DNA of 8,719 nt from Candidatus Nanopusillus sp. (GTDB taxonomy: Archaea; Nanobdellota; Nanobdellia; Nanobdellales; Nanobdellaceae), in the NCBI GenBank assembly GCA_028275775.1, contig JAPWTZ010000017.1:1-8719 (forward strand), in the 5' to 3' direction. Under the pieces are notes generated by a model that saw only the letters and a program-made list of their open reading frames with translations, made no database searches and was not told where the DNA came from. Shown here piece by piece: positions 1-8,719 of this stretch (positions are counted from its first letter, which is position 1; each line of letters starts with the position of its first letter). Position numbers and translations under genes: made by a program.

Positions 1-726
1 TCTAACATATTTAAAAAGAAAAATGACAACAAAAATGTTCAAAACATTAATTTTATACCTCAACAAAATATTGTAAACCAAAATTATACATCAGAAATAA
101 AAAATATTATTAACTCTATTGAAGGTTTAGCTAAAAGTGTGAGAGAATTGGAGAATAAAGTGTCTGAAATTTCTAGCAATATATCAAATATAAACTCTAT
201 AGTAGAAAGTCATCAAAATGAAATAAATAGCATTAAAAATAACTTAGAAAAAGTTTTTTCTGTATATGAAATGTTAATAAAAAATTACAATCCGTTTGTA
301 GAAGAAGAAAAAAAGGAAGAAATATCGAATGTTCAAGTTATAAATGAAAAAAAGATAGAAAATTCAGAAAATAATATATTACCATTGAACAAGCTTGATG
401 ATAATCCAACTACTTCTTCAATTGTAATTGGTTGGTTGGCATATTTAGTTAAAAAATCAAATATAGAAGAAGTAGATAATGCATTAGATTATTATGAATC
501 TATCAATTGGATAACCGAAAAGGTAAAAATAAAATTAAAGGAATATTTAAATGGATTGAAAAATGTTGAAGGTGAAAATAAAAAACTATTACCAATGGAT
601 CACATAGTAAGTTTATATATAATATCAAAATTGGCTCAAATAAATAGTTCAAATAGTATAGAAAGATTAAAGGATTTGTATAATGAGCTAATTCAGAAAG
701 GTTATATATCACCTATAAAAAGATGA
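1..726 (+). CDS. flaD: Archaellum accessory protein of the FlaC/FlaD/FlaE (ArlC/D/E) family, 5'-truncated by the window edge
   Basis: I translated the frame of the 139..726 ORF by hand back to base 1 and found no stop (SNIFKKKNDNKNVQNINFIPQQNIVNQNYTSEIKNIINSIEGLAKS-VRELENK...). There is no in-frame ATG, so the GTG at 139 is probably internal. The coiled-coil segment ending ...LEKVFSVYEMLIKNYNPF resembles the FlaC_arch signature (YE...NPF). The C-terminal LPLNKLDDNPTTSSIVIGWLAYLVKKSNIEEVDNALDYYESINWITEKV matches the Arch_fla_DE signature (WLxfL...ALdYYexigWIsexV). It lies directly upstream of flaH and flaI. Confidence 0.85.
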   Translation, partial: SNIFKKKNDNKNVQNINFIPQQNIVNQNYTSEIKNIINSIEGLAKSVRELENKVSEISSNISNINSIVESHQNEINSIKNNLEKVFSVYEMLIKNYNPFVEEEKKEEISNVQVINEKKIENSENNILPLNKLDDNPTTSSIVIGWLAYLVKKSNIEEVDNALDYYESINWITEKVKIKLKEYLNGLKNVEGENKKLLPMDHIVSLYIISKLAQINSSNSIERLKDLYNELIQKGYISPIKR

Positions 727-1106
727 TAAGGGAATTAATATATGTGTTTATTTTATTTATAACAGGATATCTAGTATTAAGTACATTTTTTAACTTTTAC
801 TCTTCAGCAGGAAAAATAATTGCAGATGGAATATCAAATATAACAACTCCAACACATGGAACTCAGGTAAGTTATATAATAAACCATTATAACTCTGGTG
901 ACTATTCAATATTATATTTAGTACAAAATATTGATCCTTCAAATTGTATAAATAGTATAAAAGTTGGAAATACAGTAGTTAACTTCACATATAAAGTATT
1001 AAATCAGTATACAATAGAATTGAATATAAGTTATCCAGTGAATACAGGGGATCGTTTAACAGTAACATTCTGTAATGGCCAATCTTCTTTATATTATCTC
1101 AGCTAA
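723..1106 (+). CDS. FlaF/FlaG-like (ArlF/ArlG) archaellum stator-type protein: N-terminal TM helix plus a small beta-rich domain
   Basis: 127 aa. The N-terminus MIRELIYVFILFITGYLVLSTFF is a single hydrophobic helix, and the rest is rich in T/S/N/V/Y. Its position between flaD/E and flaH is where flaF/flaG sit in euryarchaeal fla operons. The start overlaps the upstream stop (ATGA at 723-726). I cannot tell F from G by sequence alone. Confidence 0.6.
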   Translation: MIRELIYVFILFITGYLVLSTFFNFYSSAGKIIADGISNITTPTHGTQVSYIINHYNSGDYSILYLVQNIDPSNCINSIKVGNTVVNFTYKVLNQYTIELNISYPVNTGDRLTVTFCNGQSSLYYLS

Positions 1107-1108
1107 CA

Positions 1109-1813
1109 ATGGCAGAATATATTAATATCTATTTAGATAGGGATGAATTTTCAAATAGAATTGGGGGTGGAATTCCAAAAGGTAGTATATTTATAATTGA
1201 AGGAGAAAATGGAACTGGAAAAAGTATTATATGTCAGAGAATATTATATGGGGCTTTATTAAACAATCATACTGCAACATATATTTCTACAGAATTATCT
1301 GTTGTAGATTTTATTAAACAAATGGAATCTTTAGGTTATGATATAAAAGATTATCTACTAAATCAAAAATTATTATTTATACCAACACTAAATTTATTTA
1401 ACAGAATAAAGGAGAGAGAGAATTTAATATTTGAATTAACAAAAGAAAAATCTAGAAAATTATTAGAAAATGAGTTAATAATATTGGATTCTTTATCATA
1501 TCCATTAATAGATGGATTAAATAAGATGGATTCAGTAAGATTAATTGAATTTTTAAGTAAAATAAAAAATTTAGATAAAACGATTATTTTAACATACAAT
1601 CCTTCAGAAATAAATAAGTTCTTTGTAAGAAATATAAGGAGAATTGCAGATATATACTTTAATTTAAGGTTTTCTTCTATTGGAGAATCATCATTATTAA
1701 AAATAATAGAAATAAAAAGATTTAGATATCCAATGGGGGTATATAATACATTAATACCATTCAGAGTAGAGCCAAATATAGGGCTAATAATTGAAATATC
1801 TTCATATGTATAA
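1109..1813 (+). CDS. flaH: Archaellum protein FlaH (ArlH), a KaiC/RecA-like ATP-binding protein
   Basis: 234 aa. Walker A GENGTGKS follows IPKGSIFIIEG, and a Walker B-like hydrophobic strand ends in D (LIILDSLS). Size and position immediately upstream of flaI are typical of FlaH. Its TAA stop shares one base with the flaI ATG. Confidence 0.9.
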   Translation: MAEYINIYLDRDEFSNRIGGGIPKGSIFIIEGENGTGKSIICQRILYGALLNNHTATYISTELSVVDFIKQMESLGYDIKDYLLNQKLLFIPTLNLFNRIKERENLIFELTKEKSRKLLENELIILDSLSYPLIDGLNKMDSVRLIEFLSKIKNLDKTIILTYNPSEINKFFVRNIRRIADIYFNLRFSSIGESSLLKIIEIKRFRYPMGVYNTLIPFRVEPNIGLIIEISSYV

Positions 1814-3489
1814 TGCCTGAACAAATACAAGAAACAAAACAGGAATATATAATAAAAAGAGAAAACACAAAAGTAATAACTAATGATATAACTACATCAT
1901 TTGATGAAGCATTAAATAAATATGAACATCTTAGAAATTATATTAATGAAATATCATTAAAAATAGGACCTCCTGAATGGATGACTTCTCTAGATTTTTC
2001 TTTAAGATCTAGAACTGAATTTAATATATTATATCCTGTTGGAGATCCAATATTTATTCATATATATAAATTACCATCTGGAGAAGCATTATATAATGTA
2101 ATAGAACCAGAATTAAATGATAATGAAAAGAAAAAATTAGAACAAATACAAACAAAAATTGTTAAATATGCAATAGAAGACATTAACTTTAATAATGTTG
2201 AAGAAGTGAAAAGATACATAATTGATCTTTTTAATAGGGTTATTGATTTTAAGAGAAGAAGATTATTTTCTGATAAAGTATATATAAAAAATCAAGAAGA
2301 ATATGATAAATTATTATATTATTTAATTAGGGAAAGATTTGGTTATGGATATTTAGAACCATTTTTAAGAGATCCTTATTTAGAGGACGTACATATTTTA
2401 GGTTTAGGTCCAATTTATGTTGTACATAAAATATTTGGAATGCTTAAAACAAATAGGGGATTTAAAAATGAGGAAGATTTAAATAAATATATAATTAAAT
2501 ATTCACAAATAGTTGATAGACCTGCATCAGAAACAAGACCAATAGTTGATGCAATATTACCAGACGGTTCAAGAGTTAACTTTATATATGGTAAAGATAT
2601 ATCTTTGCACGGATCTTCATTTACAATAAGAAAATTCTCTACAAAACCATTGAGTATAACACAACTAATTTCATTTGGTACAATTTCCCCAGAAGAAGCT
2701 GCTTATTTATGGTTAGCAATTGAAAATGGAATGAACATAGTAATATCTGGAGAAACAGCATCGGGAAAAACTACACTATTAAACGCATTAGCTACATTTA
2801 TTAAACCTGATGCAAAGGTTTATTCTGTAGAAGATACTCCTGAATTAAATATACCACACAATATATGGCAAAGGTTAATTACAAGAGAAGTTGGAAAAAG
2901 TGCAGATGTATCAATGTATGATCTATTAAAAGCAGCATTAAGATCTAGACCAAATTATATATTAATAGGTGAGATAAGAGGTAAAGAAGGTTATGTAGCA
3001 TTCCAGGCAATGCAAACAGGTCATCCTGTTATGACAACATTCCACTCAGGTAATATAGTTTCATTAATAGAAAGATTGACCGGAGAACCAATAAATATTC
3101 CAATTACATTTATAGATAACTTAAATATTGCTGTATTTACAACATCTGTAACAGTGAAGGGAAGATATGAAAGAAGAGTAACAAATATATATGAAATAGA
3201 AAAATATATTGCAGAATTAAAGAAAGTTGCTGTTAGAAATGTATTTACATGGAATTCTGTACAGGATAAACATATGTTTATTGGAAAATATAATAGTTAT
3301 ATATTGGAAAAGAAAATTGCACCATTAATGAAAATTGATGATAAAAGAAAAATATATCAAATATTAGATTATAGGGCTAAGATATTAAAAAAGATGGTTG
3401 AATATGAGATATTTGATTTCTTTGAAGTATGGGAAATACTGAAGAATTTCTATATAAATGGACCTTCATCATTACCATTTTCAGTATAA
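1813..3489 (+). CDS. flaI: Archaellum assembly/motor ATPase FlaI (ArlI), type II/IV secretion ATPase superfamily
   Basis: 558 aa. Walker A GETASGKTT is at nt 2749-2775 and Walker B/Asp box is PNYILIGEIRG. The His box region is MQTGHPVMTTFHS. The conserved YLEDVH and PDGSRVN motifs are typical of FlaI/VirB11-like hexameric ATPases. Confidence 0.95.
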   Translation: MPEQIQETKQEYIIKRENTKVITNDITTSFDEALNKYEHLRNYINEISLKIGPPEWMTSLDFSLRSRTEFNILYPVGDPIFIHIYKLPSGEALYNVIEPELNDNEKKKLEQIQTKIVKYAIEDINFNNVEEVKRYIIDLFNRVIDFKRRRLFSDKVYIKNQEEYDKLLYYLIRERFGYGYLEPFLRDPYLEDVHILGLGPIYVVHKIFGMLKTNRGFKNEEDLNKYIIKYSQIVDRPASETRPIVDAILPDGSRVNFIYGKDISLHGSSFTIRKFSTKPLSITQLISFGTISPEEAAYLWLAIENGMNIVISGETASGKTTLLNALATFIKPDAKVYSVEDTPELNIPHNIWQRLITREVGKSADVSMYDLLKAALRSRPNYILIGEIRGKEGYVAFQAMQTGHPVMTTFHSGNIVSLIERLTGEPINIPITFIDNLNIAVFTTSVTVKGRYERRVTNIYEIEKYIAELKKVAVRNVFTWNSVQDKHMFIGKYNSYILEKKIAPLMKIDDKRKIYQILDYRAKILKKMVEYEIFDFFEVWEILKNFYINGPSSLPFSV

Positions 3490-3564
3490 TTAATAAATTT
3501 TTCTTGAGATTAATTTAATTATGGATCGGTATTAAAAAGGCAAAAATTTTTGTTATAAATAATT

Positions 3565-4839
3565 ATGATGGATAAGAATATTATAAAATTACTTTTATGG
3601 AAAAAGCCAACAATAGAAGTATTAAATGAAGAAAAGGTAAATAAAATAAATAATTTCAGACATTATATAGGATATGAAATATCAGGATATGTCCATTTAG
3701 GTACTGCAGTTGTATCTGGATATAAATTAATTGATTTTATGAATTTTGCAGAAACAGAAATATTTTTAGCAGATTGGCATTCAGTAATAAATAATAAATT
3801 AGGAGGAGATCCTGAAGTAATTAAAAGAATTGCAAAAGGATATTTTACTGAAGCAATGAAACAAACAATAAAATCTTTAGGTGGAGATCCTGATAAGATA
3901 AAATTTGTTTTAGCATCAGAAATATATAATAATGATTATTGGGCAGAAGTAATTAAAATTGGAAAAAATACTACATTAAATAGATTATTAAGATCTGTTA
4001 CAATTATGGGAAGAAAATATGAAGAATCGATGCCATCTGCAAATTTAATATATCCATTAATGCAGGCTGCAGATATAATATTTCAAAAAATAAATATTGC
4101 ACATGCCGGAATTGATCAGAGAAAGATTCACGTAATTACAATTGAATATGCTGATAAAATAAATTATGATTTAATTGCAGTACATCATCAATTAATAACA
4201 AATCTACAATTACCATATGAAACATTCCAAAAATTAAAATCTGGAAATATAAAAGAAGCTAAGGAAGAATTATCTGAACTAAAAATGTCAAAATCAATAC
4301 CAGGTTCTGCAATATTTGTTCATGACAGTCCTTCAGAAGTTATTGATAAAATAAATAAAGCATTCTGTCCTCAGAGGGAATTGGAATTCAATCCAATATG
4401 GGAAATAGTTGAATATTTAATATTTAGGGATCAAGAAGGTTATGGAATAATAAAATATTTGTATGAAAATAATTTATATAAAATAGAAAATATTGAAAAT
4501 ATAAATTATGACATATATGATGAATTAAAGAATAATAATAAAATAAATTGGAATGAAGTATATAAAATAATTGATAAAGAATCCAATGAATTATATAAAT
4601 ATTCATATAAAGATATTGAATTTGAAATAATTAATGAAAAAACTGGGGAAAGAAAAATATATAATAATTTATGGGATTTAAGAAAAGATTGGGTTGATGG
4701 AAAAATACATCCAATGGATTTAAAGAAAGCTGTTGGAAAATGGTTGGCAAATAAATTGGAACCTGTATATAAATATTTTACTGAAGGACCTGGTAAGAAA
4801 TATAAAGAAGAATTGGATTCTGTTAAGATCACTAGGTAG
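3565..4839 (+). CDS. tyrS: Tyrosyl-tRNA synthetase, archaeal type, with lineage-specific insertions
   Basis: Class I aaRS signatures are present: HLGT (a HIGH variant, nt 3694-3705) and an exact KMSKS (nt 4282-4296). From memory it is collinear with M. jannaschii TyrRS: YIGYEISG vs YIGFEPSG (Tyr32 equivalent kept), LADWH vs LADLH, TTLNRLLRS vs TTLKRARRS, IYPLMQAADI vs IYPIMQVNDI (Asp158 equivalent kept), IDQRKIH vs MEQRKIH, DSPSEVIDKINKAFCP vs DSPEEIRAKIKKAYCP, HPMDLKKAV vs HPMDLKNAV. Confidence 0.9.
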   Translation: MMDKNIIKLLLWKKPTIEVLNEEKVNKINNFRHYIGYEISGYVHLGTAVVSGYKLIDFMNFAETEIFLADWHSVINNKLGGDPEVIKRIAKGYFTEAMKQTIKSLGGDPDKIKFVLASEIYNNDYWAEVIKIGKNTTLNRLLRSVTIMGRKYEESMPSANLIYPLMQAADIIFQKINIAHAGIDQRKIHVITIEYADKINYDLIAVHHQLITNLQLPYETFQKLKSGNIKEAKEELSELKMSKSIPGSAIFVHDSPSEVIDKINKAFCPQRELEFNPIWEIVEYLIFRDQEGYGIIKYLYENNLYKIENIENINYDIYDELKNNNKINWNEVYKIIDKESNELYKYSYKDIEFEIINEKTGERKIYNNLWDLRKDWVDGKIHPMDLKKAVGKWLANKLEPVYKYFTEGPGKKYKEELDSVKITR

Positions 4840-4873
4840 TTTCATTTATAAATTTTTTTATCAATGATAATTT

Positions 4874-5209
4874 ATGAAGATTGACAAAATGATTAACAAT
4901 TTGATCATGTTAATTGTTTTGTATAGATTACATGCAAAAAAATTACTTAATAAAATCCAGGATAACGAGGCAAAAATGTTATTGTTAATGTCATTTAAGG
5001 ATAATGATATATTAAATATTCTGGAAGATATTGTTGATAGAAAGAAAATATTTGATGAATATATAAGGAATAATCAAATAAAGAAAGCTTATCTAGTATA
5101 TAAAGATATTGAATATAAATATAAGCTAGCCGAATCAATATTATATAATAGAATTGAAGATTTAGTTAAAATAAGGGCTTTAGATATTGTAAAATCTAGA
5201 AGAAATTAA
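4874..5209 (+). CDS. Hypothetical small protein, predicted mostly alpha-helical and K/E/I-rich
   Basis: A 111-codon ORF is unlikely by chance in a genome where stop triplets are compositionally favoured. A TATA-like TTTATAAA at 4845-4852 is centred about 26 nt upstream of the ATG. I recognise no motif. Confidence 0.5.
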   Translation: MKIDKMINNLIMLIVLYRLHAKKLLNKIQDNEAKMLLLMSFKDNDILNILEDIVDRKKIFDEYIRNNQIKKAYLVYKDIEYKYKLAESILYNRIEDLVKIRALDIVKSRRN

Positions 5210-5427
5210 TCTTTTCTTTTTACCCTATATAAAGGTATTTTTCCTTTATATGATAAATATATGTAGACATCTATAATAATTAATAACAATATAATCAACG
5301 CTGACATATAATATAAATTTTTATTTGGCGAATTAATCAGTGTATTTATTATTATTGTAATAGTTATCAATGTAATTATTAAAGTAAGATAAACTTCATA
5401 TTTCGTTGCGTATAATTCTTCTTCCAT
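5206..5427 (-). CDS. Hypothetical small membrane protein with two predicted TM segments
   Basis: 73 aa with two hydrophobic stretches (VYLTLIITLITITIIINTLI and MSALIILLLIIIDVYIYL) and a basic C-terminus (RVKRKD). An AT-rich TATA-like stretch lies upstream of the ATG. It is short and compositionally biased, so confidence is only moderate. Confidence 0.4.
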   Translation of the reverse strand: MEEELYATKYEVYLTLIITLITITIIINTLINSPNKNLYYMSALIILLLIIIDVYIYLSYKGKIPLYRVKRKD

Positions 5428-5456
5428 TAATAATTGTTCTATAAAATATTAAAAAA

Positions 5457-5505
5457 TCTGAGCTCAAGACCCTCATCATTTATCAGCCGATGAGTTTTTC
5501 TTCAT
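5457..5505 (-). ncRNA. Candidate archaeal C/D box sRNA (2'-O-methylation guide), 49 nt
   Basis: The minus strand reads 5'-ATGAAGA(C)-aaaactcatcgg(12 nt)-CTGA(D')-taa-ATGATGA(C')-gggtcttgagct(12 nt)-CAGA(D)-tttttt-3'. The canonical 12-nt guide spacing occurs twice and the internal D'/C' pair is perfect. The terminal C and D boxes each deviate at the position that normally forms the U-U pair of the k-turn (U to A in both). An oligo-T follows immediately (5451-5456), and a TATA-like TTTTTAAATA (5528-5537, minus) is centred about 27 nt upstream. This is the only relatively GC-rich patch in the intergenic region. Confidence 0.5.
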
Positions 5506-5563
5506 TATAAAGATATTATAAAAATTTTATTTAAAAAGCCATAATAGAAATGATAAAAATAGA

Positions 5564-6499
5564 TTATGATTGCTTATTTTCCAAATCTATATAATTATAT
5601 TTATTTAGATAATATTTTCTTAATTTATCCCTAAAGAATATATATAATAATGTATGGGTAATTCTTTTTATAATATTACTATCTATTATTGTCAAATATT
5701 GAATATATTCTTTTATGGATATTTTATAATTTGTATTATAAACAGTATTTAATTCCATTTTTAATCCTATCAAATAATTTAATACTCTTTTACATTTTAA
5801 TCTTTCATAAATATATATAAAATCTTTCAAATGTTTTTCAAGACTATCCTTACTAAAGCTAGTACTTGCACTTAGATTATGTCTTCTGTAGTACGTTAAT
5901 TCATCTTTTATCTTTATTATTTTACCTTTAGTTTTAAAATAACACATTAAACTATTATCAACAACAAAATATATATTCCTTAAATATTCCACCAGTTCAT
6001 CCTTATTCTTTGTATGAAATATTATTCCTACTGTTCCACCGACGCTTACTAAATCAAATATCTTTTCCTTAATTCTTTTTATCATACTTTTACTTTCTTT
6101 AATTATATTTCCATTTATATCTATTGGAATTAATCTATGTGCAATCATATATTCTTCATCCTTAATATTTTTTACAATTTCAAATATTCTACTAATTTTA
6201 TTTTCAGTAAACATATCGTCATCATCTAATATAAATATTAAATTACTTGAAGAAACTTTAATTCCTTCAGAATAGTTTCTTCCAACATAATGATCAGGAT
6301 CGTTAGGATCTAAATTTATTATTTTATAATTAGGAAAATTTTCTTTAATATAATTATCTATTTTTTCATCTTGATAATATTTTACAACAATTACTTCAAT
6401 ATCATTTAAATCTATTCCTTTTTGATTTTTAATACTTTTTAATGCATCTAAAATATATTTTTTTCTTTTGTAATCAATAATTATTACTGAAGCTTTCAT
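5564..6499 (-). CDS. Family 2 (GT-A fold) glycosyltransferase
   Basis: 311 aa. The N-terminus ASVIIIDYKRKKYILDALKSIKNQ...IEVIVV matches the typical GT2 beta-alpha-beta start. An acidic DxD-type motif lies in LIFILDDDDMF. Confidence 0.8.
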   Translation of the reverse strand: MKASVIIIDYKRKKYILDALKSIKNQKGIDLNDIEVIVVKYYQDEKIDNYIKENFPNYKIINLDPNDPDHYVGRNYSEGIKVSSSNLIFILDDDDMFTENKISRIFEIVKNIKDEEYMIAHRLIPIDINGNIIKESKSMIKRIKEKIFDLVSVGGTVGIIFHTKNKDELVEYLRNIYFVVDNSLMCYFKTKGKIIKIKDELTYYRRHNLSASTSFSKDSLEKHLKDFIYIYERLKCKRVLNYLIGLKMELNTVYNTNYKISIKEYIQYLTIIDSNIIKRITHTLLYIFFRDKLRKYYLNKYNYIDLENKQS

Positions 6500-6790
6500 A
6501 AGAGAATATAATAAAAAATAAAGATTTTTAAATTATTTTTAGATTTTGAAAGTGTGTTTTAGATTAACTTTGTAAAGGCGGAATATATTTAATGAAAAAA
6601 TTTCAAGAATTTTATATCACGTTTTAATATTTAAACTATTTAATATACTATCAAGAGAACTTAAATATGGGTCAATTTAGATTGTTCTTTAAATTAATAA
6701 GTTGTAAATTTTTTATCTTTGATTTTATAATTATAAATATTTTGCTTTTAAAAAATTTACTTATTAAAATATACACAATTATAGTATAAT

Positions 6791-6807
6791 TTTATAATGT
6801 TTTCTTA
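6791..6807 (+). promoter_or_regulatory. Putative promoter of paralog A: TATA-like TTTTATAA followed by the conserved TTTTCTTA element
   Basis: TTTTATAA (6791-6798) lies 23-30 nt upstream of the ATG at 6821. TTTTCTTA (6800-6807) starts exactly 21 nt upstream of that ATG, the same distance as the identical 8-mer upstream of paralog B. The AT-rich background makes TATA calls weak on their own. Confidence 0.35.
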
Positions 6808-6820
6808 TAATGTTAATAGT

Positions 6821-7537
6821 ATGAGTGATCAAACATTATCTTATAATCACAAAGAAGGAGAGTTTATAATTAACAGTGGATTATTACTAAGACCTTTGAA
6901 GAGCTTAGAGGAGGTATTATATAATATAATTTTTGATGAAGCGTTATTTAATATAGCCAAAAGGAGAGTTGATATAAGCGATATAATGGGAGCATATATA
7001 GATATGTTGGCATTGGTCCGTGTCCAGCCAGAAGAACGTAATGCTGATAGACCAAAATTTAGGGGTGAATATTTACTTTCCCTAGACTTTTTAGATCCAC
7101 TTTTCCTACAAGTTTTAGATCCCACAAGCCGTAAAGTTGTTTCATGTAAATCATCAGGAGGTATATCACAGTCAGATATTATTAAAATTACATGTTTAGA
7201 TTTAAAAAATGATAGTTCATATGAAATCCTTTATCCCATGGAAAATATGCGTAATAGTCTATTAGATATGCTATATTTAATACATAGAAGAGGAATGGAG
7301 ATATTTAAAGATCCTGATATTTCTAAAAAAATTGATGATAAGACCCCAATTCTTTATGGGTTATATATTAAAGCAAAAATGTATTTAACCCAAAAACCAA
7401 ACGAGCCAGACATAAAAATTTATAACAGAACACCAATATTCGGAATTTTTGAGTATAATAATGGAAGGTCTGAAATTACTATAAAGTATGAACTTATTAT
7501 ACCGGGTTATCTTTTTGTTCCTATTCTTAAAAGTTAA
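6821..7537 (+). CDS. Uncharacterised protein, paralog A of a tandem pair (the ORF track starts it at 6797; 6821 is preferred)
   Basis: Long ORF. Starting at M9 (6821), the N-terminus MSDQTLSYNHKEGE aligns residue for residue with paralog B, MDGQTQSYNFERKL. Further shared blocks: ISDIMGAYIDMLALV vs MDHLNIYMELLDTG, FRGEYLLSLDFLD vs YKGEYTGKCHFTAD, KNDSSYEILYPMENMRNSLLDML vs KKNKSYEIKSYELRDIGKIIRDL, and C-termini YELIIPGYLFVPILKS vs LRLIPLPYSK. I recognise no known domain. Confidence 0.75.
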   Translation: MSDQTLSYNHKEGEFIINSGLLLRPLKSLEEVLYNIIFDEALFNIAKRRVDISDIMGAYIDMLALVRVQPEERNADRPKFRGEYLLSLDFLDPLFLQVLDPTSRKVVSCKSSGGISQSDIIKITCLDLKNDSSYEILYPMENMRNSLLDMLYLIHRRGMEIFKDPDISKKIDDKTPILYGLYIKAKMYLTQKPNEPDIKIYNRTPIFGIFEYNNGRSEITIKYELIIPGYLFVPILKS

Positions 7538-7588
7538 AAATTTTTATGAATTTTATACCATAATCCCAACATTTTTAAATAGTTTTTT

Positions 7589-7604
7589 CTTTTAAATTTT
7601 CTTA
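7589..7604 (+). promoter_or_regulatory. Putative promoter of paralog B: TATA-like TTTTAAAT followed by the conserved TTTTCTTA element
   Basis: TTTTAAAT (7589-7596) lies 22-29 nt upstream of the ATG at 7618. TTTTCTTA (7597-7604) starts exactly 21 nt upstream, mirroring the arrangement at paralog A. Confidence 0.35.
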
Positions 7605-7617
7605 CGTTATATAACAT

Positions 7618-8205
7618 ATGGATGGTCAAACACAATCTTACAACTTTGAAAGAAAATTAGAAATTAGCTCTAAAATATCACGGCTATTAGAAACACTAGA
7701 TATAAAATTACAAGAAATGGCTAGAAAAATGAGAGGTAATATAAAAAATATGGATCATTTAAATATATATATGGAGTTACTAGATACAGGAGGAAAAGAA
7801 AAAACTTTCAGTATCAATACTGGTAGGGTATCCCTTATGAATTATAAAGGAGAATATACTGGAAAATGTCATTTCACAGCAGATGATTTATTAACAGATA
7901 ATATTCTATGTAATACTACAAAAAAGAATAAATCTTATGAAATAAAGAGTTATGAACTAAGAGATATAGGAAAAATCATCAGAGATTTATCAAATATTAT
8001 TAATGAAAGGAAAAATTCACCCAATTCGTCATATTGGTTGATATTTTATGCAGATATAGCCAACTATTTGCCATATAGCAATCCAAGAATAGTAATAGAA
8101 AAGGAGAAATCATTTCTAGATAACGCAGATATAATAATGATCTCCTATAGTACTTTTAGATCCCATATTTGTTTGAGGCTTATTCCTTTACCATATTCAA
8201 AATAA
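7618..8205 (+). CDS. Uncharacterised protein, paralog B of the tandem pair
   Basis: 195-aa ORF ending in tandem stops (TAATAA). It shares the N-terminal Q-T-x-S-Y-N motif and several collinear blocks with the upstream 6821..7537 protein. I recognise no known domain or catalytic motif. Confidence 0.75.
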   Translation: MDGQTQSYNFERKLEISSKISRLLETLDIKLQEMARKMRGNIKNMDHLNIYMELLDTGGKEKTFSINTGRVSLMNYKGEYTGKCHFTADDLLTDNILCNTTKKNKSYEIKSYELRDIGKIIRDLSNIINERKNSPNSSYWLIFYADIANYLPYSNPRIVIEKEKSFLDNADIIMISYSTFRSHICLRLIPLPYSK

Positions 8206-8264
8206 TAAGAATTTATTTTTTAGTAGCGTATTATATTATTTAATGTATGAAAGATAAATAGAAA

Positions 8265-8719
8265 TTAAATATTATATTTTTCTAGATCTTTTAAATCAAA
8301 TAAATATAAGTTATTTTCTTTAATTCTTTCTTTAAAACTCTTTGCAAATATTATATAGTATTTATTTTTTATATCTAAATTTATATATTCGGATTTTTCT
8401 TTTAAATCTTCCAATATTTCTTTTGGATTTATATTATCAGAATGTTTACATTCTATTAAATATATATCTTTTGTATTTTCACTATATGCAACTAAATCTA
8501 TTTCTTTATCTTTATACCACCATTTTCCAATTTTTGTAAATTTAAATAATCTGCTTTTTATTAAAAATTGTTTTGCTATATCTTCAAAAACGTATCCTAA
8601 ATATCTATTATAATCTCTTTTAATATCATTAATATCAAATATACCTTCTTCTATAGAACTTAAATTTGGATAAATATATCTAAACCAGAATCTAATAAAG
8701 TTATCATTTATATAATATC
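8265..8719 (-). CDS. Archaeal ATPase family protein, C-terminal DUF234 domain; 5' part lies beyond the right window edge
   Basis: This is absent from the ORF track because no start lies in the window. Hand translation of the minus strand from 8717 gives 150 codons without a stop, ending at TAA (complement of 8265-8267): YYINDNFIRFWFRYIYPNLSSIEEGIF...YLGYVFEDIAKQFL...FTKIGKWWYKDKEIDLVAYSENTKDIYLIECKHSD...YYIIFAKSFKE. This matches the DUF234 signature (dnFlRFWFrfv.P; G..FE; iGrWW...EIDiva; l.ECKw) found at the C-terminus of Arch_ATPase (PF01637-type) proteins. Confidence 0.85.
   Translation of the reverse strand, partial: YYINDNFIRFWFRYIYPNLSSIEEGIFDINDIKRDYNRYLGYVFEDIAKQFLIKSRLFKFTKIGKWWYKDKEIDLVAYSENTKDIYLIECKHSDNINPKEILEDLKEKSEYINLDIKNKYYIIFAKSFKERIKENNLYLFDLKDLEKYNI

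Follow-up and report, generated by a model that had tools for sequence, protein, structure and literature searches.

Genes A and B of a Candidatus Nanopusillus contig as probable cassettes of a recombining tandem gene family

Two adjacent plus-strand genes, here termed A and B, lie towards the end of positions 1-8,719 of contig JAPWTZ010000017.1 of Candidatus Nanopusillus sp., an 8,719-nucleotide (nt) stretch of archaeal DNA that was analysed over its full length and is referred to as the window. Rather than forming a fixed pair, both genes probably belong, as cassettes, to a tandem multigene family that is confined to Nanopusillus and whose redundant members evolve by birth and death together with recombination. 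Judged from its sequence, each cassette is autonomous, as it comprises a TATA box about 28 nt 5' of the ATG, a family-specific TTTTCTTA(C) element, a coding start specifying a tail of the form M-D/S-x-Q-T-x-S-Y-N and an oligo-T run. An earlier note on this DNA had described two related tandem genes with a common start and a common 5' region, an overall observation that was confirmed; the retained pair it had suggested, with a heteromeric or two-component function, was not supported, since at least four subfamilies exist and the partner varies between close strains. The features of both genes in the window are the following.

6797-7537, plus strand: open reading frame (ORF) of gene A, with the motif-bearing ATG at 6821
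6821-7537, plus strand: gene A, subfamily A, 238 amino acids (aa) plus stop
7618-8205, plus strand: gene B, subfamily B, 195 aa plus stop
6821-6847, plus strand: codons 1-9 of gene A, MSDQTLSYN, with the common tail motif M-x-x-Q-T-x-S-Y-N
7618-7644, plus strand: codons 1-9 of gene B, MDGQTQSYN, with the common tail motif
7145-7147 and 7193-7195, plus strand: family-invariant Cys codons of gene A (C109 and C125, both TGT; alignments A3, A4 and A6)
7867-7869 and 7909-7911, plus strand: family-invariant Cys of gene B (C84 and C98)
6790-6797, plus strand: TATA box of gene A, TTTTATAA, 24-31 nt 5' of ATG 6821; the element is kept in A, C and D homologs
7590-7597, plus strand: TATA-like box of gene B, TTTTAAAT, 21-28 nt 5' of the ATG
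6800-6807, plus strand: TTTTCTTA element of gene A, beginning exactly 21 nt 5' of the ATG
7597-7604, plus strand: TTTTCTTA element of gene B, beginning exactly 21 nt 5' of the ATG
7541-7545, plus strand: oligo-T run after the gene A stop, TAAAAATTTTTATG, candidate archaeal terminator
8216-8221, plus strand: T6 run after the gene B stop, candidate terminator

The two genes are spaced by 80 nt, and an in-frame stop lies two codons 5' of the gene B ATG.

Homology of A and B and extent of the family

A and B are diverged paralogs, as the earlier note had held, and profile comparisons make this homology firm. Over the first nine codons the alignment of the N-termini was recounted with the same result as before, 20 of 27 nt being identical, which corresponds to 6 of 9 residues. 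The C-terminal similarity that had also been put forward (LIIPGY and LIPLPY) is weak. Direct comparison by BLASTP gives E=0.12, while Smith-Waterman alignment reaches z=3.0 with 29 of 2000 shuffles equal or better, and global alignment z=1.0. Measured against shuffled controls, the pair on its own is thus borderline, and its homology is borne out by profiles. As the pairwise signal is insufficient alone, profiles and bridging sequences were used: profile-profile comparison (hhalign) of the extended subfamilies A and B extends over 176 collinear columns with 93% probability and E=2.5e-7, and the two are also connected through a third subfamily, C (E=5e-23 for A-C, E=6e-30 for B-C). Likewise, the single C protein P0019 matches A over its full length with E=8e-15 and B with E=1.4e-12.

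Relatives are few. Among 5.8 billion clustered proteins, A has eight relatives and B five, or eight when a profile is used, and a HMMER pass with the A profile over 1.84 billion representatives returned six matches and thereby added four relatives, among them the C members P0019 and P0020. In total about 25 sequences are known, all of which originate from hot-spring-type metagenome contigs or from metagenome-assembled genomes (MAGs) of Nanopusillus. The related contigs considered here (L001-L018) are short metagenome assemblies of mixed strains, and array contents are accordingly given per contig, not per genome. At least four subfamilies, A-D, can be distinguished; their proteins measure about 190-245 aa, with 20-30% identity between subfamilies, and two Cys as well as several hydrophobic positions are invariant in the joint alignment of 19-20 sequences. 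Subfamily D, found in L016, has 226 aa and starts with MDDRITYYN; its copies lie at 854-1534 in L016, 1285-1969 in L002, 1450-1881 in L015 and 3009-3194 in L017, and its N-terminal helix segment is internally duplicated (hidden Markov model positions 1-34, followed by 16-209). A metagenome scan with an N-terminal four-sequence alignment returned nine loci. Four of these (L011-L014; L011 5871-5972) belong to an unrelated, GC-richer ORF of 105 aa with the start MDGQTQSYTFKQKL / MDGQTQSYTF, and were discarded as chance matches with similarity in the first residues only.

Subfamilies A-D belong to no described protein family as far as profile and fold searches reach, in agreement with the earlier description of an unrecognised family. 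Neither A nor B matches a Pfam family at E<=0.1, and when all 20 members were searched singly, six different families were matched, each by one member and with E>=0.014. In NCBIfam, PHROGs and PADLOC the only matches had E>=0.079, the family profile found nothing at E<=10 among PDB sequences, and Foldseek gave no significant match. In the literature, no description of this family was found. A mobile or viral origin was considered and rejected, as tblastn against phage and plasmid records gave no match and a motif scan of IMG/VR no relatives.

Control region, start codon and N-terminal tail

The same 8-mer, TTTTCTTA, had been reported 21 nt 5' of each ATG together with a TATA-like box, and both coordinates were verified. 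When 100 nt around the start codons were aligned for ten genes of subfamilies A, B and C, taken from independent contigs (alignment A10), one conserved block extending from about -32 to +27 became apparent, with the consensus TTTATAA(A), TTTTCTTAC, (T)ATATAAYAT, then ATG GAY GGY CAA ACA NNA TCT TAY AAY. Columns T50-T52, C54, T55 and T56, representing the TTTTCTTA element, are invariant, and D has the same promoter layout. As TTTTCTTA keeps its position, along with a TATA box and the nine initial codons, across all four subfamilies on independent contigs, the proposal that the duplicated unit includes the promoter is upheld. Counted over the whole window, the 8-mer is not enriched (5 copies versus 2.9 expected, with 35 of 200 shuffles reaching 5), and an over-strict extended version of the pattern gave zero matches. 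It is missing from five other promoters of the window, at least two of which (orf111 and the family-2 glycosyltransferase gene, GT2) have a similar TATA spacing; hence, the element is family-specific.

Across the family, the centre of the TATA box lies about 25-28 nt 5' of the ATG, which matches the usual archaeal TATA-to-start distance. This spacing suggests that the mRNAs are probably leaderless or near-leaderless. The oligo-T run 3' of gene A is a likely archaeal terminator, in which case A would be transcribed by itself as a monocistronic unit. No RNA structure was detected in the 5' block (RNAalifold, no pairs), and the window has no Rfam match. A scan for sigma-70 promoters and intrinsic terminators gave counts at shuffle level and is uninformative in an archaeon.

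Members of the A cluster in NCBI and JGI are called at 238 aa and annotated as hypothetical proteins, and many automatic calls start gene A at ATG 6797 (246 aa), inside the TATA box. This location and the TATA-to-start spacing argue for a start of gene A at 6821 as opposed to the 246-aa call, and the corrected start codon is a practical gain of the analysis. The upstream extension (6797-6820, MFSYNVNS, in frame) overlaps the TATA box as well as the TTTTCTTA element, and TCTTATAAT within it recurs 36 nt downstream as TCTTATAAT encoding S-Y-N. In L010 and P0017, after deletion of the motif, the upstream ATG may be the real start.

Within the tail, members share Q, T, S, Y and N at positions 4, 5, 7, 8 and 9, and differ at positions 2, 3 and 6. 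The strict conservation of the N-terminus assumed earlier had to be abandoned: the A-type genes of L010 and P0017 have lost the motif, P0008 and L017 retain a shorter version, and in D it has diverged. One possible explanation of the conserved 5' block is a constraint acting purely on DNA, with promoter, regulator site (TTTTCTTAC) and leaderless mRNA start being maintained and the encoded peptide having no function of its own. In its favour, conservation runs continuously from about -32 to +27 (83% identity in the non-coding and 85% in the coding part between B and C), the block travels as one unit between paralogs, and no RNA structure is predicted, as would be the case for an open leaderless 5' end. 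Moreover, most members do not vary at the silent positions of CAA, ACA and TCT, for which the strong A/T codon bias of a genome of 23% GC offers a competing explanation. At codons 2, 3, 8 and 9, however, silent changes (GAT/GAC, GGT/GGC, TAT/TAC, AAT/AAC) preserve the residues, and codon 6 is free at its first two positions, a pattern typical of a peptide motif. A constraint on DNA alone is hence conceivable, if rather doubtful. As the 5' block moves between paralogs by recombination, which alone could keep the tail similar, selection and recombination probably both contribute to its conservation. The earlier suggestion that the N-terminus might act as a processing or targeting signal has points on both sides: the tail is disordered in the models of A and B and its residues persist through silent changes, yet some intact members do without it, and recombination could account for its similarity.

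Array variation and mosaicism

The composition of the array differs between contigs as listed below, the last line giving a repeated segment in window coordinates.

Window, L005, L006, L004 and L007: A-B array
L001, 96% nt identical to the window over 8.3 kb: ψA-B-C array
L010, L017 and L018: A-C array, no B
L015: A-B, then ATPase gene, then internally deleted D
L016: B-D array
L002: ATPase gene, then C', then frameshifted D
L009: solitary C with a membrane-protein gene on one side and vapBC on the other
8273-8333: 61-nt segment, single in the window and present twice in L001, at the junction of cassette C, which is absent in the window strain

Flanking DNA is 88-96% identical between the compared strains, while the cassettes themselves come, go, break and form mosaics. 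In L001, gene A is disrupted by a CAA-to-TAA nonsense mutation and a 1-nt deletion, with B and C intact, and three of four D copies (L002, L015, L017) are frameshifted or internally deleted. The additional C cassette of L001 is bracketed by the two copies of repeat D3 (11327-11387 and 12175-12235), which are 98% identical and 848 nt apart; a further repeat of this contig, D1, is a 51-nt block present three times with 61-86% identity. Individual genes are composed of parts with different histories. Genes with only 16-34% identity in their bodies have 5' blocks with 60-97% identity, and the B genes of L004 and L016 have bodies that are 96% identical next to 5' blocks with 72% identity, the block of L004 being B-type (97% to the window) and that of L016 C-type (88-89% to C-type blocks). 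At the other end, the last 158 nt of the L004 B gene are 88% identical to C' of L002, with the remaining body being about 33% identical at protein level. As read from these incongruent parts, the promoter-plus-tail module and a 3' module have each moved between subfamilies. Copy gain and loss, incongruent gene parts and shared repeats are signatures of birth-and-death evolution with recombination between paralogs. Shared nucleotide blocks, mosaic genes and a cassette gained or lost at a repeat between close strains, all expected of recombining tandem paralogs, are present.

Evolutionary rates and possible decay

Ratios of non-synonymous to synonymous substitution (dN/dS, omega) were determined by comparing the window with close strains for A, B and eight neighbouring genes. 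In the more diverged strain pairs, dN/dS amounts to 0.81-0.92 for A and 0.63-0.86 for B, compared with 0.04-0.17 for the eight neighbours; in the closest pair (window and L006), a value of 0.44 based on few differences was obtained for A. The excess of non-synonymous differences is significant (Fisher p=7e-5 to 4e-19), and amino-acid change relative to silent change is about 8-fold faster in the family genes than in their neighbours. When columns of A were partitioned by their conservation in the distant subfamilies, omega values in the more diverged comparisons (L004, L007 and L008) were 0.49-0.66 in the core and 1.05-1.10 outside it, while the comparison with L006, resting on about 20 differences, was reversed (0.69 in the core, 0.40 in the rest). 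Variable positions are spread evenly across helices, strands and loops. From these values, the family is weakly constrained, and positive selection is possible.

Simple decay is the main rival to the cassette reading. In that case A and B would belong to an orphan family under relaxed constraint that is on its way to loss from a shrinking genome, and the 5' similarity would be a by-product of gene conversion. An overall dN/dS of 0.6-0.9 with about 1.05-1.1 in non-core columns, the disrupted copies of A (L001) and D (L002, L015, L017) and the exchange of 5' modules through recombination all agree with such a course. Decay does not readily account for the fact that four subfamilies with 20-30% identity retain length, predicted order of secondary structure elements, two Cys and a hydrophobic core, nor for the slower change of core columns (omega 0.5-0.66). 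Furthermore, every contig that could be examined contains at least one intact member, and the TATA/TTTTCTTA promoter is intact wherever upstream DNA was examined. In a genome as small and gene-dense as this one, useless DNA would presumably be lost quickly. We therefore rate decay as unlikely.

Predicted fold and possible function

AlphaFold2 models of A (predicted local distance difference test, pLDDT, 82.3; predicted template modelling score, pTM, 0.81) and B (pLDDT 81.3, pTM 0.80) were built on the 19-sequence family alignment. Both share the same order of elements: a disordered tail (1-12), a helix, five strands, a second helix and four strands. The helices comprise residues 19-47 and 141-162 in A, and 18-41 and 111-131 in B, the first having 24-29 residues and the second about 21. 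Residues 1-10 of model A have a pLDDT of about 36, and in the models of both proteins residues 18-47 form an amphipathic helix packed in the globular fold. The proteins are probably soluble, and a body fold common to A and B is predicted with good confidence. The Cys pair is located on consecutive predicted strands (E105-114 and E120-127 in A), so that a disulfide staple is likely in the modelled structure. The N-termini of A and B are polar (MDGQTQSYNFERKLEISSK and MSDQTLSYNHKEGEFIINS), and no Sec, Tat or class III signal, other signal peptide or transmembrane segment was found. A relationship to archaeal type IV pilins or archaellins, prompted by the nearby archaellum genes, was rejected, as the proteins have neither a class III signal peptide nor a hydrophobic stretch.

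Foldseek searches against PDB and BFVD gave TM-scores of at most 0.33 and root-mean-square deviations (rmsd) of 11-24 Å. In the resulting lists of weak matches, the top six PDB matches of A are acetoacetate decarboxylase-like (E=1.4e-4 to 3.3e-4, TM 0.15), and proteins similar to class I of the major histocompatibility complex (MHC-I) dominate the PDB and BFVD lists of B and recur in the PDB list of A. The resemblance to the alpha1-alpha2 platform of the MHC class I type, as found in MHC-I, ZAG, MICA, CD1 and MHC-like proteins of herpesviruses and poxviruses, consists in two long helices and a nine-stranded antiparallel set arranged in two halves. In contrast to the platform order of four strands, helix, four strands and helix, the present models run helix, five strands, helix and four strands, and the best MHC-like matches have E=4e-4 to 3e-3, TM <=0.33, rmsd >11 Å and 5-10% identity. 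Membership of the MHC class I-like fold was rejected on account of this element order and of TM-scores below about 0.5; the likeness is at most an analogy of shape.

If A and B are cassettes of a redundant family, as we favour, the array would represent a set of interchangeable variants of one activity, co-regulated via the common promoter module, in which the conserved tail could serve as a shared handle docking the variable bodies to one partner. This activity might lie in conflict between organisms or in host interaction and could be immunity-like or recognition-like. Such a role is suggested by analogy with the bacterial arrays compared below, by accessory or defence-type neighbours (DUF234 ATPase, VapBC) and by the diversity of Nanoarchaeota populations, in which hypothetical proteins carry significantly more non-synonymous single-nucleotide polymorphisms (PMC6142677).

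Several points weigh against this interpretation. Besides the accessory neighbourhood, the analogy is the sole footing of a possible conflict or host-interaction role. No toxin, secretion system or partner gene was identified near the array, and no signal peptide or transmembrane segment in the proteins; synteny with the DUF234 ATPase among close relatives is weak evidence of a functional link. Positive selection was not demonstrated by the partitioned dN/dS, with variable columns at about 1.05-1.10, and the omega pattern fits relaxed constraint as well as diversification. The supposed handle is deleted from otherwise intact A-type genes (L010, P0017). In addition, the structure models depend on an alignment of 19 sequences, some 'pseudogenes' may be homopolymer, sequencing or assembly errors, and the contigs, being short and of mixed strains, are not grouped into single genomes.

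Two more specific functional proposals fare less well than the cassette reading itself. According to the first, the products are exported or displayed proteins of host interaction, the polar, disordered tail then acting as a targeting or export signal of a non-classical kind, while the variable bodies would make contact with host, virus or competitor. Residues of the disordered tail are conserved despite synonymous codon changes, the bodies change fast around a conserved Cys pair, the organism is an obligate ectosymbiont, and the excess of non-synonymous polymorphisms in hypothetical proteins mentioned above would fit as well. However, archaea are not known to have an export route for tails of this kind; Sec, Tat and class III signals as well as transmembrane segments are absent from the proteins, intact A-type genes dispense with the motif in L010 and P0017, and no positive selection was demonstrated, so that export or display seems quite improbable. 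The second and bolder proposal is an archaeal contingency locus, in which the portable promoter and the M-D-G-Q-T-x-S-Y-N tail, as a new targeting or docking signal, would deliver exchangeable platform-fold proteins to one machine or site. Here, a fold not matched in PDB or BFVD might be presented at the host-contact zone of the ectosymbiont, and strains would differ in the variants that are presented to host, virus or competitor. We consider this very unlikely.

Returning to A and B as members of a cassette family, two ways of reading them as a two-gene unit were dismissed. A type II toxin-antitoxin pair, which would consist of two unrelated small proteins encoded in one operon under a single promoter, usually by overlapping or closely spaced genes, was rejected, since A and B are related to each other, 80 nt lie between them, and either gene has a TATA box and an oligo-T run of its own. 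The least supported and, in our view, least probable of all readings is the retained, co-dependent A+B pair forming a heteromer or two-component unit, for, although A and B are adjacent in the window, L005, L006, L004, L007 and L008 and most arrays with both flanks visible hold two intact members (A+B, B+C, A+C or B+D), an obligate module is contradicted by the disrupted A beside intact B and C in L001, the missing B in L010, L017 and L018, the B-D array of L016, the single member between unrelated genes in L009 and the separate promoter and oligo-T run of each gene.

Genomic surroundings

The remaining genes of the window are given in order of position.

139-726: FlaC/D/E-like gene
Between the FlaC/D/E-like gene and FlaH: 127-aa ORF
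1109-1813: FlaH (KaiC-like)
1813-3489: FlaI
3565-4839: class Ib Trp/Tyr-tRNA synthetase
4874-5427: two small ORFs without family, of 111 aa (plus strand) and 73 aa (minus strand, membrane-like), the end of the 73-aa ORF overlapping by 4 nt
5564-6499, minus strand: GT2
8265-8719, minus strand: 3' part of a DUF234 / Mrr-like gene, a convergent archaeal ATPase gene that runs off the window

Comparison of close strains shows the two small ORFs to be conserved by purifying selection, with dN/dS of about 0.1. Directly next to FlaI comes the tRNA synthetase gene, no FlaJ-like membrane gene being present 3' of FlaI either in the window (1813-4839) or on the syntenic contig L001. GC content of the window is 18-31% in 500-nt windows and mostly 20-27%, the genome being described as having 23% GC. 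The window matches contig JAPYVP010000018.1 (L005) from the MAG Candidatus Nanopusillus sp. RSNP5, with 98% identity across 8.4 kb and 100% in gene B. Between window positions 1-8404 and L005 2379-10783, the FlaC/D/E-like gene, the 127-aa ORF, FlaH, A and B are 100% identical, with 94.7% identity for the tRNA synthetase, 92% for the 73-aa ORF and 97% for GT2 (synonymous divergence, dS, 0.12-0.29). This patchy identity suggests either that strains have recombined over a tract or that the assembly is a chimera of strains living side by side.

The product of 8265-8719 has C-terminal DUF234 (E=1.3e-25) and Mrr_cat (E=0.0019) domains. ATPase genes (PF01637) with such a DUF234/Mrr-like C-terminus occur at 8265-8719 (minus strand) in the window, 993-1454 in L015, 2544-2759 in L017 and 1-396 in L002, flanked by A-B or A-C on one side and by D and a 72-aa two-helix membrane protein on the other; the copy in L017 is truncated to about 71-88 aa. 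For the location of the ATPase beside the cassettes, a functional link and shared ancestry may both be considered. The 72-aa protein, which has no family assignment, begins with MDNNNKNKKF..., carries two predicted membrane helices and has a lysine-rich tail; its gene lies 3' of D or its remnant in L002 (2063-2281) and L017 (3300-3518). In L004 (2135-3409), B is followed not by an ATPase gene but by a plus-strand ORF of >366 aa with no Pfam match, and this difference marks the region 3' of the array as a variable spot. In L009 (531-1116, minus strand), a VapB-VapC (PIN) toxin-antitoxin pair is convergent to the solitary C gene. Within the array flanks of only about 10 kb, which hold GT2, the DUF234 ATPase, VapBC, the 72-aa membrane protein and the >366-aa protein, no other recognisable toxin gene and no secretion gene was noticed.

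Significance and comparison with known systems

Genomes of Nanoarchaeota are among the smallest of cellular organisms, and most of their lineage-specific genes are unexplained. The present family provides a compact and concrete case of genes that such a genome probably keeps duplicating, shuffling and discarding, and combines a portable promoter-plus-tail module with a confidently predicted fold that has no match. If its members do interact with host, virus or competitor, they would provide a way into the strain-level specificity of an archaeal symbiosis, and the tail would become a candidate for a new archaeal targeting signal.

Among minimal-genome, host-attached organisms, the vsp, vsa and vlp loci of Mycoplasma are comparable arrays, encoding surface lipoproteins with a conserved 5' region, which comprises promoter and N-terminal coding sequence, and a variable body. 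Their conserved N-terminus is a lipoprotein signal peptide, and variation arises via site-specific inversion or repeat slippage. In the Nanopusillus arrays, no invertase and no inverted or internal repeats were noticed, the formal search having covered direct repeats in L001 only.

In the lpl cluster of the Staphylococcus aureus nuSa-alpha island, tandem paralogs evolve by recombination at a shared block (Tsuru and Kobayashi 2008, PMC2568036). Both systems have same-strand tandem paralogs, a conserved nucleotide block as recombination site, incongruent gene parts, rearrangements and copy-number differences within a species, and a presumed role in host interaction. In contrast to the present proteins, which have no signal peptide or lipobox, the lpl products are bacterial lipoprotein homologs, and neither sequence nor fold relates them to the Nanopusillus family. 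Moreover, the lpl block is located in the middle of the ORF, whereas here it comprises the promoter and the first approximately nine codons and is complemented by a separately exchanged 3' module.

The immunity arrays of type VII secretion systems in firmicutes, esaG and tipC, are the other comparable case. Copy loss and gain in these arrays are explained by recombination between paralogs (Garrett et al. 2022, PMC9484751); common to them and the present family are strings of non-identical tandem paralogs encoding small proteins, homology blocks at gene ends (5' and 3' in tipC) and copy loss and gain between close strains. The esaG and tipC genes differ in being bacterial and without sequence relation, in adjoining a polymorphic toxin and a secretion system, neither of which was seen in about 10 kb around the Nanopusillus array, and in that the abstract of that paper mentions no conserved N-terminal tail. 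Even if the Nanopusillus family should only be decaying, it would still document recombination-driven turnover of cassettes in an archaeon, while both comparable cases, lpl and esaG/tipC, are bacterial.

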